From contig DXJG01000003.1 of assembly GCA_019056805.1 (NCBI GenBank), positions 27,712 through 59,711 of the forward strand: a stretch of DNA of 32,000 nucleotides. Reading direction: 5' to 3'. This DNA comes from Candidatus Baldrarchaeota archaeon. GTDB lineage: Archaea > Asgardarchaeota > Baldrarchaeia > Baldrarchaeales > DXJG01. Below the pieces are notes generated by a model. It ran no database searches and was not told where the DNA came from. It worked only from the letters and a program-made list of their open reading frames with translations. The position numbers and the translations under genes are program-made. This document shows, piece after piece, positions 2,077 through 13,149 of this stretch; position 1 is the first letter of the stretch; each line of letters opens with the position of its first letter.

Positions 2077-2470
2077 AGAAAAAAGGAAAACCAAATGGGG
2101 AGTAGCACACATCTACAGCTCTTACAATAATACAATTGTACATATCACAGATTTGACTGGTGCTGAAACAATCGCTATAGCTAGCGGTGGTATGATAGTT
2201 AAAGCGGATAGAGAAGAATCTTCACCATATGCAGCTATGCAAGCAGCATTCAGAGTAGCAGAAGCTGCAAAAGAAAAGGGTATAACCGCGATACACATCA
2301 AAGTAAGAGCACCCGGCGGACACGGACCAAGAAATCCAGGACCAGGAGCACAAGCAGCCATAAGAGCTTTAGCAAGATCAGGGTTAAGAATTGGTAGAAT
2401 AGAAGACGTAACACCAATACCACATGACGGAACCCGCCGCCCCGGTGGAAGAAGAGGAAGACGAGTCTAA
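2069..2470 (+). CDS. rps11: 30S ribosomal protein S11
   Basis: [61 protein letters not shown]. Confidence 0.98.
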
Positions 2471-2501
2471 ACACGTATTTTTCACCCTTGGAGGAACTAA
2501 T

Positions 2502-3311
2502 ATGAATATCAGAATTTTGGAAAGAAGAGAAGAATTGATAAAATTTATTCTAGAAGATGTAGATGCGGCATTTGCAAACAGTTTAAGACGTATAATGATA
2601 GCTGAAGTACCAACTATGGCTATAGATGATGTTATAGTAATAGAAAACAGTTCACCTTTATTTGATGAAATAATTGCTCATAGACTTGGTCTAATTCCAC
2701 TTAAAACAGACCTAGATACCTATGTTCTTCCCGAAAAATGTGAATGTGGAGGAGAAGGTTGTGCGAATTGCCAAGTAGCCTTAACTCTAGAAGTTGAAGC
2801 AACCGATGGCCCTATGACGGTTTACTCAGGCCATCTAAAATCTCAAGACCCTAAAATTGTCCCTGTAAGTGAAAAAATCCCCATAGTTAAGCTAGCAAAA
2901 GGACAAAAACTTGTTTTGGAGGCATATGCCCGATTAGGACTTGGCAAGGAACATGCAAAATGGCAACCCGTATCCGCAGCCGCGTACAAATATTTACCCA
3001 TCATAAATCTTGATTATGAAAAATGTGATCAGTGTGGGGCTTGTGTAGAAGTTTGTCCAAGGGAAATCTTAACATTAAGGGATGGAGAACTTGTAATAGG
3101 AGATATATTCAATTGTAACTTATGTAAATCATGCGAAGAGGCATGCGACTTAGAGGCTATTAAAGTTTCATATGATAATAAAACCTTTATATTCATCATT
3201 GAAAGTACTGGTGCTTTACCTCCAGAAAGAATTTTAGAAGAAGCAGCAAAAATACTTACCGAAAAAGCTGAGCAATTAATTAAAGAGATGGAGAAAAATA
3301 GAGAAATATGA
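2502..3311 (+). CDS. rpoD: DNA-directed RNA polymerase subunit D (Rpo3) with Fe-S ferredoxin-like insert
   Basis: FANSLRRIMIAEVPTMAID, DEIIAHRLGLIPL, G.GKEHAKWQP, and two CxxCxxCxxxC motifs. SD GGAGG precedes ATG at 2502. Confidence 0.97.
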   Translation: MNIRILERREELIKFILEDVDAAFANSLRRIMIAEVPTMAIDDVIVIENSSPLFDEIIAHRLGLIPLKTDLDTYVLPEKCECGGEGCANCQVALTLEVEATDGPMTVYSGHLKSQDPKIVPVSEKIPIVKLAKGQKLVLEAYARLGLGKEHAKWQPVSAAAYKYLPIINLDYEKCDQCGACVEVCPREILTLRDGELVIGDIFNCNLCKSCEEACDLEAIKVSYDNKTFIFIIESTGALPPERILEEAAKILTEKAEQLIKEMEKNREI

Positions 3312-4166: not shown

Positions 4167-4571
4167 ATGGCTAAAATTCTCCTTGCGAGTGGTAAAAGAA
4201 AAACAGCAATAGCCAGAGCTGTCATAAGAGAAGGAAAGGGAAGAATAAGAATCAACAAAATACCTCTCGAAATTTATCAACCTGAACTGGCAAGATGGAA
4301 AATTATGGAACCCATACTTTTAGCAGGTGACGATATTATAAGTAAAATAGATATAGATGTCAAAGTAGAAGGTGGAGGAGTCATGGGACAAGCTGAAGCT
4401 GCAAGAATGGCAATTGCACGAGCCCTGCTTGAATGGACAGGGGACTCGACATTAAGAAAAAAGTTCATAGAGTATGATAGAACAATGATTGTAGGAGATC
4501 CTAGAAGAACAGAGCCCAAAAAATTTGGAGGTAGAAGCGCGAGAGCTAGAAGACAAAAGTCTTACAGATAA
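4167..4571 (+). CDS. rps9: 30S ribosomal protein S9
   Basis: [53 protein letters not shown]. Confidence 0.98.
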
Positions 4572-4780
4572 CCTATTACATTCCTAATTTTAATTGTAAT
4601 GTCATTACTCTTCAGAAAATTATCAGATCAGAACTTTATATCAGCTAGTAATTCACTTAAAACATTCGATACAAAAGCAATGTTTAAATAATTTTTTCTT
4701 TTAGTTCTATGTACACATGGAGGTGGCTAAACAAGCCATTAAAACCATTTTGAGTCTAAAATGTTAAGAGGTGTATTTAT

Positions 4781-5022
4781 GTGATAATCCCGGTCCGATA
4801 CTGGCGCTCCAATTGAGCTTAGATGGGGCGCCAGCGGAAAGCTTTACATGCGGGAAATTAATCGCTGATAAGTGGGAAGAATTTGCACGACGTGTAAGAC
4901 AAGGCGAAGATCCAAAACAAGTATTAGACGACTTAGGCATTAAACGATATTGTTGTAGAAGAATGCTTCTCAGCCACGTAGACCTAATAGATGAAATCTT
5001 AGATTTTAGCCTACCCACCTAG
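4781..5022 (+). CDS. rpoN: DNA-directed RNA polymerase subunit N (Rpo10), spliced: join(4781..4799,4841..5022), 66 aa
   Basis: SD GAGGTG (4768-4773) and GTG at 4781. Exon 1 encodes MIIPVR plus T; exon 2 begins GC TTT ACA TGC. The join gives [18 protein letters not shown]...[11 protein letters not shown], the canonical Rpo10 with a Zn-binding CxxC and CC. The ORF-track call at 4771 reads through the intron and lacks the first Cys. Confidence 0.93.
4800..4840 (+). other. 41-nt BHB-type intron in rpoN pre-mRNA
   Basis: Central helix UCCG(4794-97)/CGGA(4835-38), 3-nt bulges AUA(4798-4800) and AAG(4839-41), 11-bp inner stem CUGGCGCUCCA/UGGGGCGCCAG (one G-U). Cleavage after the 2nd nt of each bulge restores the Cys codon T|GC. 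Unspliced frame stops at TGA 4814-4816. Confidence 0.9.
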
Positions 5023-5097: not shown

Positions 5098-5721
5098 ATG
5101 AGCGAAGAAGTCGTTGAAGACTTATTAATTCCACTTGAACAATATCTAGCAGCAGGTATTCACATCGGTACTAGAATTAAAACAAGATCAATGGCTGATT
5201 TCGTATACAGAGTTAGACCTGACGGTCTTTATGTATTAGATGTTAGAAAAACAGATGAAAGAATTAGAATAGCTGCAAAAATGTTAGCCAGATACGAACC
5301 ACATAGAATTCTTGTTGCATCAGCCAGACAGTATGGACAAAAACCCGCTAGAAAATTTGCCGAGCTCATCGGGGCTCACGCCATAGTGGGCAGATTTGTA
5401 CCTGGAACATTAACGAATCCCGCCTATCCAGGATACTTAGAACCCAGTATACTCATGGTTACAGACCCTAGAGCGGATAGACAAGCAGTTAGCGAAGCAA
5501 TAGAAGCTAGAATACCCGTAGTAGCACTTTGCGACACGGATAACATTACCGCAAATGTAGACTTAGTTATACCCACAAATAATAAAGGACGTAAAGCACT
5601 AGCCCTTATATACTGGCTATTAACTCGCCAAGTCTTAAGAGAAAGAGGAGAAATACCGCCAGATGGAGAGCTTCCTACACCCATCGAAGAATTTGAAACA
5701 AAAATTATCCTTAAAACCTAA
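5098..5721 (+). CDS. rps2: 30S ribosomal protein S2
   Basis: [67 protein letters not shown]. Confidence 0.98.
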
Positions 5722-11337: not shown

Positions 11338-13149
11338 ATGGCTCTCAGACAACCAATTTGCGTTGTACTTGGCCATATAGACCATGGGAAAACAACTCTA
11401 CTTGATAAAATTCGCGGAACAGTAGTTCAGTTAAGAGAAGCCGGGGGCATAATCTAGCCAGACAGCTCTCTGGCTAGATGCCAAACCCAACATATAGGAG
11501 CATCGTTCCTTCCAGCCGAAGTCATAGAAAAAATATGTGGTAAACTTTTAGAAAAATTTAATATTAAAATTACAATTCCAGGAATTTTAATTATAGATAC
11601 ACCGGGTCACGAAGCTTTTTATAATCTAAGAGCTCGTGGGGGAGCTGCAGCAGACTTCGCCATCCTTGTAGTTGATGTCATTGAAGGATTTCAAACACAA
11701 ACCTGGGAGTGTATAAATATTTTAAAATCCAGACGGGTACCTTTCCTTGTAGCTGCAAACAAGATAGATAGAATTCCAGGATGGCAACCTAACCCGGGAG
11801 CACCTTTTCTTGAATCTTTTAAGAAACAAAGTCCTCACGTTCAAAAATTTCTAGACGAAAAAGTCTACGAAATCATGGGTTCACTATCAACAGAAGGTTT
11901 TCAAGCCGAAAGATTTGATAGAGTTAAAGATTTTACAAAAACAGTTGCTATTATTCCAACAAGTGGCAAAACAGGTGAAGGCATACCCGAACTTCTTGCA
12001 GTTTTAGCCGGTTTAACTCAACGTTATATGAAAGAGAAATTAAAAGTTGTAACAGGTCCTGGAAAGGGAGTTGTTCTGGAGGTTAGAGAAGAACCCGGAT
12101 TAGGTTTGACTCTTGACGCCATTATATACGATGGTATCGTAAGAAAGGGAGACATAATCGTAGTTGGCGGTCTAGATGGTGTAATAGTCTCCCGAATCAG
12201 ATCTCTTCTCCAACCCAAACCTCTTGATGAAATAAGAGATCCAAGAGATAAATTTAATCCAGTTGATCAAGTTGTCGCAGCAGCTGGCGTTAAAATAGTG
12301 GCCCCAGATCTTGAAGGGGCTGTTGCTGGGTCGCCGATACGAATTGTCTGGGATGAATCAATAGTTGAAGAAATTGAAAAAGAAGTTGAAGAAGAACTCG
12401 AAAAAATAAGAATATCAACTGATAAAACAGGAACAATCCTTAAAGCTGACACTCTCGGTTCTCTAGAAGCTATAGTCAACTATTTTAGAGAAAGAAATAT
12501 TCCGATAAGAATGGCTGATGTCGGTGATGTTTCAAAAAGAGACATAATGGAAGCTATTGCAGTAAAAGAAAAGGATCCATTCCTCGCCGCCATCCTAGCT
12601 TTTAATGTAAAAGTTCTTCCTGATGCTGAGGAGGAAGCTAGACGCCATAATATACCAATATTTAAGAGCAACATTATATATAGGCTTTTCAACGACTACG
12701 AGGACTGGTTAATAAAGAAAAGAGAAGAACAAAAGAAAAAGGAACTAGAATCCCTTATAAGACCTGGAAAATTCAAAATATTACCCGGGTATGTGTTCAG
12801 GAGAAGTAAGCCGGCAATAGTCGGTGTCAAAGTTCTTGCTGGCAAAATACAGCCAAAATATTCACTAATTAACTCAGACAATCAGAAAGTAGGGTCAATA
12901 CTTCAAATACAAGATAAAGGGCAAAACATTAAAGAAGCTACAAAAGATATGGAAGTTGCAGTATCAATTAAAGGGCCAATTGTTGGACGACATATTAAAG
13001 AAGGGGACGTACTATATGTAGATGTTCCTGAATCCCATGCAAGAATATTATTAACAAAGTTTAAAAATGATCTAACAATTGATGAAATCGAAACTTTGCA
13101 GGAATTGATTGAAATAAAGAGAAAAGAAAAACCCTTCTGGGGAACATAG
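11338..13149 (+). CDS. infB: Translation initiation factor 2 (aIF5B), spliced: join(11338..11451,11485..13149), 592 aa
   Basis: SD AGGAGG and ATG at 11338. [27 protein letters not shown] (G1), EAGGI|TQHIGA (G2) after removing 33 nt, IDTPGHEAF (G3), ANKID (G4). Frame is continuous into the ORF-track fragment 11875..13149. Confidence 0.95.
11452..11484 (+). other. 33-nt BHB-type intron in infB pre-mRNA
   Basis: Outer helix GGG(11443-45)/CCC(11486-88), central helix GGCA(11446-49)/UGCC(11479-82), bulges UAA(11450-52) and AAA(11483-85), perfect 10-bp inner stem UCUAGCCAGA/UCUGGCUAGA. In-frame TAG at 11455-57. Canonical cleavage joins ATA|ACC (Ile-Thr). Confidence 0.92.

Follow-up and report, generated by a model that had tools for sequence, protein, structure and literature searches.

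Introns of the BHB type in tRNA and rRNA share one geometry (a 3-nt bulge, a 4-bp helix and a second 3-nt bulge), and are cut by the EndA endonuclease and joined by RtcB. A pre-mRNA intron of this type is also known, in the gene cbf5, with earlier studies reportedly by Watanabe (2002) and Yoshinari (2006). The cbf5 intron is found in Crenarchaeota (Aeropyrum, Sulfolobus, Desulfurococcales; Yokobori 2009, PMC2738675), where its splicing has been confirmed by cDNA and in vitro cleavage, and for which the rule has been stated that BHB motifs are cut between the second and third bulge residue (PMC2738675). In the literature that we searched, it is the only protein-coding BHB intron in Archaea with experimental support, all other cases having been predicted only (PMC2738675); papers from 2025-2026 cite cbf5 as the sole case, and no paper on a BHB intron in rpoN or in an Asgard mRNA was found.

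Two other systems offer partial parallels. The HAC1 and XBP1 mRNAs lose a short intron by a spliceosome-independent, protein-catalysed reaction that changes the reading frame: the IRE1 nuclease cuts, and a tRNA ligase or RtcB, the latter in animals, joins the exons (review PMC13149111). Ribosomes translating phage T4 gene 60 skip an interruption of tens of nucleotides that contains a hairpin and an early stop; this bypass keeps whole codons and needs matched take-off and landing codons.

Here we describe an insert in rpoN of a Baldrarchaeia-like Asgard archaeon, which is very probably a 41-nt endonuclease-type (BHB) intron lying within the codon for Cys7. Like the cbf5 intron, it is a short intron in coding sequence that would fold with its exons into a partly relaxed BHB, with predicted cuts between the second and third bulge residues; both hosts encode a hetero-oligomeric EndA, and both genes are mis-annotated by gene callers. 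In contrast to cbf5, rpoN encodes a core RNA polymerase subunit and belongs to the Asgard phylum, its insert splits a zinc-ligand codon, and its splicing is deduced from DNA. The geometry is the same as that of tRNA and rRNA introns, and the length of the insert (31-43 nt among relatives) and the type of its 3' bulge (AAG/AAA) resemble those of tRNA introns in its own genome, which encodes the same enzymes; however, the substrate would be an mRNA, the exon part of which is coding, so that helix partners are limited to silent codon positions. The likeness to HAC1/XBP1 extends to the removal of a short intron from mRNA by proteins with a change of frame, but IRE1 is stress-activated and recognizes paired stem-loops, whereas for rpoN a tRNA endonuclease would act on a BHB, with no sign of regulation. 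Gene 60 shares with rpoN the short gap, the hairpin and the early stop, but rpoN has a split codon and conserved BHB determinants. Introns of this kind are already known; the novelty lies in the host gene, in the phylum and in how abundant they appear to be.

The rpoN locus and its predicted joined product

The window (the whole stretch of DNA that was analysed, 32,000 nt) belongs to a metagenome-assembled draft genome of 1.92 Mb (18 contigs, 91% complete) in which rpoN is single-copy. The gene occupies window positions 4781-5022 (+), inside the cluster rpoD-L18e-L13-S9-rpoN-S2, which follows the usual archaeal order. Its surroundings and parts are as follows.

2424-3311: rpoD, in the cluster upstream of rpoN
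4167-4571: S9, in the cluster, 5' of rpoN
4768-4773 (+): Shine-Dalgarno-like GAGGTG, of putative function, 7 nt upstream of the true start GTG 4781
4771-4773 (+): false start GTG inside the Shine-Dalgarno-like box, beginning an 83-aa read-through ORF that ends at 5022
4781-4799 (+): exon 1 (GTG ATA ATC CCG GTC CGA U), with the GTG start, the MIIPVR codons and then U as base 1 of the Cys7 codon
4800-4840 (+): predicted BHB intron, 41 nt, phase 1, 59% GC, with an in-frame TGA at 4814-4816
4841-5022 (+): exon 2, in which GC ends the Cys7 codon and is followed by FTCGK...SLPT and the stop TAG at 5020-5022
5098-5721: S2, in the cluster, 3' of rpoN

This agrees with the earlier note, which had read from the letters a GTG start at 4781, MIIPVR plus U, a 41-nt insert at 4800-4840 and the continuation GC UUU ACA UGC GGG AAA, with which exon 2 opens at 4841. 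The insert, located 19 nt from the start codon and inside the Cys7 codon, has a GC content of 59% against 35.5% for the genome. Left unspliced, the exon-1 frame does run into the TGA at 4814-4816, as had been claimed, and its product is an 11-residue peptide only. The GTG at 4781 lies ten bases downstream of the GTG at 4771 and in a different frame. Gene callers had been expected to choose GTG 4771 and lose the first Cys, and this is what is found: the only rpoN ORF in the mechanical ORF list is the 83-aa frame from that codon, which matches the Pfam profile over positions 7-58 and recurs letter for letter in public protein collections. The GAGGTG box stands at equal spacing in the genus-mates, and in G004, one of the related genomes with an insert discussed below, GGGTGA precedes the ATG start.

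Applied to rpoN, the cut rule removes exactly 4800-4840. The predicted joining of U4799 to G4841 creates UGC (Cys7) in the context CGA UGC UUU and gives a 66-aa RpoN. Against the Pfam family RNA_pol_N (PF01194), the joined product matches profile positions 1-58 with 117.8 bits and the unjoined one positions 7-58 with 97.1 bits; the junction that the earlier note had derived from the rule (CGA T/GC TTT) accordingly adds 20.7 bits, and restoration of the profile by joining at the rule-predicted cuts holds in all variants. In 17 of 17 distinct solved sequences (archaeal Rpo10/RpoN and eukaryotic Rpb10), exon 2 aligns from residue 8; it falls short by exactly seven residues, all of which come from exon 1 and the split codon. 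Joining yields a protein with C7, C10, C44 and C45 (residue numbers as in the solved chains), the zinc ligands of the RpoN/Rpo10/Rpb10 family, Cys7 being the first; C7 is absent from the unjoined ORFs.

The predicted proteins of public assemblies were searched for an exact match to the spliced 66-aa protein, and none was found. The public RpoN records of the lineage (P0002-P0009, P0109) show at least seven wrong N-termini (e.g. MSAES-, MGVTSAES-, MAEG- and the 83-aa form), and every lineage record examined has a wrong N-terminus without the first zinc-ligand Cys7. Asgard genomes need intron-aware gene calling.

A second box was observed further upstream: GGAGGTG at window positions 4719-4725 (+), about 55 nt upstream of the rpoN start, also present in the three genus-mates and followed by no conserved start codon.

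Occurrence among relatives and fold of the motif

In 5 of 41 genomes the rpoN profile match begins at position 7, namely in the window genome, its three genus-mates and the only genome representing a second family, and in the other 36 it begins at position 1, 2 or 3. The order and the class consist of the same five genomes, all of which are interrupted at the same base. The site is likewise interrupted in seven further metagenome loci (L121-L125, L132, L134), of which six come from assemblies that are not among the reference genomes; five were obtained via a pattern scan of contigs and two via look-ups of mis-called proteins, and one (L122, on a 101,615-nt JGI contig) may be the same DNA as one reference genome. 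The earlier note had suggested a comparison with insert-free rpoN: in about 110 other archaeal loci (Asgard, Bathyarchaeia, Thermoprotei and others), the gene is uninterrupted at this site and M-I-I-P-[VI]-R-C-F-T-C-G is contiguous, the phylum-wide absence of the insert applying to the genomes listed, which are the best 150 of 369 matches. Five other Asgard genomes gave weak rpoN matches, which reflect truncation of the gene at contig ends and not introns.

A metagenome-assembled draft in 18 contigs, 91% complete, invites the suspicion that the insert is an assembly error, or that the gene is a decaying copy. The insert is, however, found in contigs assembled from three sequencing runs, which belong to three studies (two of the runs may be the source of this assembly), in five species-level genomes, and in JGI and ENA contigs from several metagenomes; at the locus, the contigs of four DNA runs contain the insert and show no joined (insert-free) form. 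Against a pseudogene stand intact, conserved exons in a single-copy, essential gene. An artefact or a decayed gene, the former named in the earlier note as a possible refutation, is therefore hardly conceivable.

Nine distinct inserts, all between the same two bases, measure 41, 43, 41, 42, 31, 41, 41, 41 and 31 nt. These lengths span all three classes modulo 3, so that the exons have no constant frame relation in DNA and only precise removal yields the same protein everywhere. Changes in exon 1 among the nine variants are confined to the start codon (GTG/ATG) and three third codon positions, all silent; when the exon-1 bases are read in the frame of the gene callers, the amino acids change freely among relatives. 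The elements of the predicted fold, in window coordinates, are the following.

4788-4791 (+): 5' strand (UCCC) of a long-range closing helix, pairing with 4852-4855 in the consensus fold
4792-4793 (+): 5' strand (GG) of the minimal outer helix h, pairing with C4842 and U4843
4794-4797 (+): 5' strand (UCCG) of the central 4-bp helix, in exon 1, pairing with 4835-4838
4798-4800 (+): 5' bulge AUA, predicted cut 4799/4800, invariant in nine sequences
4801-4834 (+): inner hairpin h', with an 11-bp stem (4801-4811/4824-4834) and a 12-nt loop (4812-4823) of free sequence
4835-4838 (+): 3' strand (CGGA) of the central helix, in the intron
4839-4841 (+): 3' bulge AAG, predicted cut 4840/4841, AAG in eight sequences and AGG in one
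4852-4855 (+): 3' strand (GGGA) of the long-range closing helix, pairing with 4788-4791

The central helix is paired in 100% of cells over the nine sequences, with a single U-A to U.G change (CGGG once), the inner helix ranges from 9 to 17 bp, and in every variant exon 2 opens with GC UUU after the 3' cut. The pair G4793-C4842 of the outer helix is present in nine of nine sequences and G4792.U4843 in six, so that this helix has 2 bp in six variants and 1 bp in three; the long-range 4-bp helix (4788-4791/4852-4855) sits nine bases beyond it. The minimum-free-energy fold (-30.6 kcal/mol, z = -3.1, 1 of 200 shuffles as good) recovers the central helix, the 5' bulge and the stem. From the fold proposed in the earlier note, the central helix, the two bulges and the 11-bp stem were retained, but the outer GG/CU helix, a G-C plus a G.U pair, is not picked by energy folds, which favour a small exon-2 hairpin together with the long-range helix and leave a 2-nt junction at the 3' cut. 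Because the 3' bulge is closed by a helix of 1-2 bp plus a covarying long-range helix, the rpoN motif is a relaxed BHB, canonical on its 5' side only. Rfam gave no match at the rpoN locus. The genome holds no other copy of the intron, which is thus not a member of a repeat family.

The pairing is supported by covariation. In nine related sequences of one lineage, for which the values are not to be read as probabilities, the proportion of paired cells is 96.3%, and with partners slid by 1-3 columns it drops to 37-43%; 12 pairs are changed on both sides, against 1-4 in these slid controls; the contrast is large, and 0 of 500 column shuffles reach the observed values. The inner stem is quite different in sequence in each sub-lineage while its pairing is kept (11 of 15 aligned pairs changed on both sides, 96.9% of cells paired). 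Pair 4789/4854 occurs as C-G (three sequences), U-A (three), A-U (one), U.G (one) and a C.U mismatch (one), and its two bases are the silent third positions of the Ile3 and Gly11 codons; this covariation indicates that RNA structure constrains synonymous exon sites, and it supports the long-range closing helix.

The tip of the hairpin is reverse-complemented between the close relatives L033 (257-298) and L122, with the stem unchanged, a hairpin flip within the intron. Coding sequence could not tolerate such an inversion.

The gene-caller model holds that the insert is translated: RpoN would begin with GTG 4771, or with some other start codon within or ahead of the insert, and an N-terminal extension peculiar to the lineage would replace MIIPVRC. 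In its favour, the frame from 4771 is open, its product is present in public collections, and open frames of 72-87 aa also exist in relatives. Yet GTG 4771 is embedded in the Shine-Dalgarno-like box of GTG 4781, and the relatives share neither a start (ATG, GTG or TTG occur at varied places, giving at least seven N-termini) nor a peptide, because the insert varies in length modulo 3 and its hairpin tip is inverted. The product would moreover lack Cys7, which is kept in all of the roughly 110 other loci and in all solved structures, and the retention of MIIPVR plus U, with silent changes only and in another frame, would go unexplained. We consider translation of the insert very unlikely.

A further rival is translational recoding, by ribosome bypass or frameshift over the hairpin as in phage T4 gene 60; a stable hairpin and a stop shortly after exon 1 bear a superficial likeness to a bypass site. 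However, the Cys7 codon is made up of U4799 and G4841-C4842, on either side of the insert, and a hopping ribosome could not bring these bases together into one codon. There are no matched take-off and landing codons, the length of the gap is not constant (31-43 nt), and conservation falls on two 3-nt bulges and a 4-bp helix, that is, the determinants of the endonuclease. Recoding is, on this evidence, extremely unlikely, and excision from the mRNA as a BHB intron is the reading that we follow below.

Splicing enzymes and the case for cleavage with ligation

The genome encodes a 184-aa EndA resembling alpha subunits (best PDB match 3p1z_B, E = 1.4e-44). It is nearest to the catalytic alpha subunits of A. 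pernix, S. tokodaii and P. aerophilum, whose enzymes are heterotetrameric, and the similarity includes the stretch aligned to their extra loop. A second EndA paralogue, of 178 aa, has valine at the position of the catalytic His of the M. jannaschii enzyme. By its sequence, the pair is of the broad-specificity, two-subunit type. RtcB is likewise encoded (608 bits). Two EndA paralogues, consistent with an (alpha-beta)2 enzyme, have been reported for most Asgard genomes, with intron-rich tRNA genes (10.64898/2026.10.13.758758, a 2026 preprint). In the window genome, 91% complete, ARAGORN found only 18 tRNA genes, of which 12 contain introns; the majority of its tRNA genes probably escape detection owing to multiple or non-canonical introns. 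Where tRNA BHBs are clear in this genome, the introns measure 24-31 nt and the 3' bulge is AAA or AAG, similar to rpoN.

These genes suggest how RpoN may be made. In the pre-mRNA, UCCG of exon 1 would pair with CGGA of the intron, flanked by the AUA and AAG bulges, a stable intron hairpin and weak or long-range pairing between the exons. The two-subunit EndA would cut after the second base of each bulge, at 4799/4800 and 4840/4841, and RtcB would then ligate the exons and probably circularize the intron. The mature mRNA, reading CGA UGC UUU, would be translated into a normal 66-aa RpoN with the C7, C10, C44, C45 zinc site.

Cleavage might also occur with no rejoining of the exons, in which case the motif would act as a site of processing or decay and lower the level of rpoN mRNA. 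The endonuclease can act on BHB motifs in RNAs other than tRNA and rRNA. A systematic search for EndA substrates in archaea has been reported (PMC7714728). With rpoN in a single copy, however, no complete RpoN could be made without ligation; in nine variants that differ in length, the cuts restore both the reading frame and the Cys codon, which is not expected of a mere cleavage site; and RtcB is encoded. Such a role for the motif seems very improbable.

The identification of a BHB pre-mRNA intron made in the earlier note is thus supported by the constant site, the lengths modulo 3, the compensatory changes, the silent changes in exon 1, and the presence of an EndA pair and RtcB. From the anatomy of the locus, its conservation and covariation, the restored profile and the enzyme genes, we infer that cleavage and ligation take place on rpoN RNA, and the cell almost certainly has to cut and rejoin this mRNA to make RpoN. 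If an obligatory intron is indeed conserved throughout an Asgard class in the gene for a core RNA polymerase subunit, then mRNA splicing by enzymes is no crenarchaeal curiosity; such an intron would tie RNA polymerase production to the tRNA-splicing machinery, and raises the question of the order of splicing and translation in a cell without a nucleus.

Other candidate introns in protein-coding genes

Three further genes contain candidate inserts of the same kind. In infB (aIF5B), at window positions 11452-11484 (+), a candidate 33-nt insert with an in-frame TAG forms a strict hBHBh' motif (outer helix GGG/CCC, centre GGCA/UGCC, bulges UAA and AAA, 10-bp stem), and its removal restores the universal motif EAGGITQHIGA. 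Strict BHB inserts are also present in pyrG (C9:155012-155043, minus strand, 32 nt) and in glyA (C6:44097-44122, minus strand, 26 nt), and in both genes removal restores a universal motif, with the junctions KIDPYLNVDPGT and NRYAEGWPGERVYAGC, respectively.

A census of the motif over the genome (stems of at least 7 bp) returned 60 matches with the 3-4-3 geometry, and 35-54 for ten off-geometry controls with a 4-bp central helix. Relaxed or GC-filtered versions of the census gave no excess over the off-geometry controls, and nothing but noise came from a permissive version. By itself, the motif is thus weak evidence, and counting cannot enumerate introns here; from the census, only matches whose junctions restore known motifs were used.

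On balance, we lean towards the view that endonuclease-spliced introns occur genome-wide in protein-coding genes of this Asgard class, in core information-processing and metabolic genes (candidate hosts rpoN, infB, pyrG, glyA), and that the rpoN intron is a visible example. If so, many essential proteins, RNA polymerase included, would depend on the tRNA-splicing machinery, and translation would wait on mRNA splicing; a prokaryote belonging to the nearest kin of eukaryotes would then have protein genes that are split as a matter of routine.

The genome scan also returned a 22-nt BHB candidate at C17:158950-158971 (minus strand), with the junction IIMGAAGRDFHNFN.
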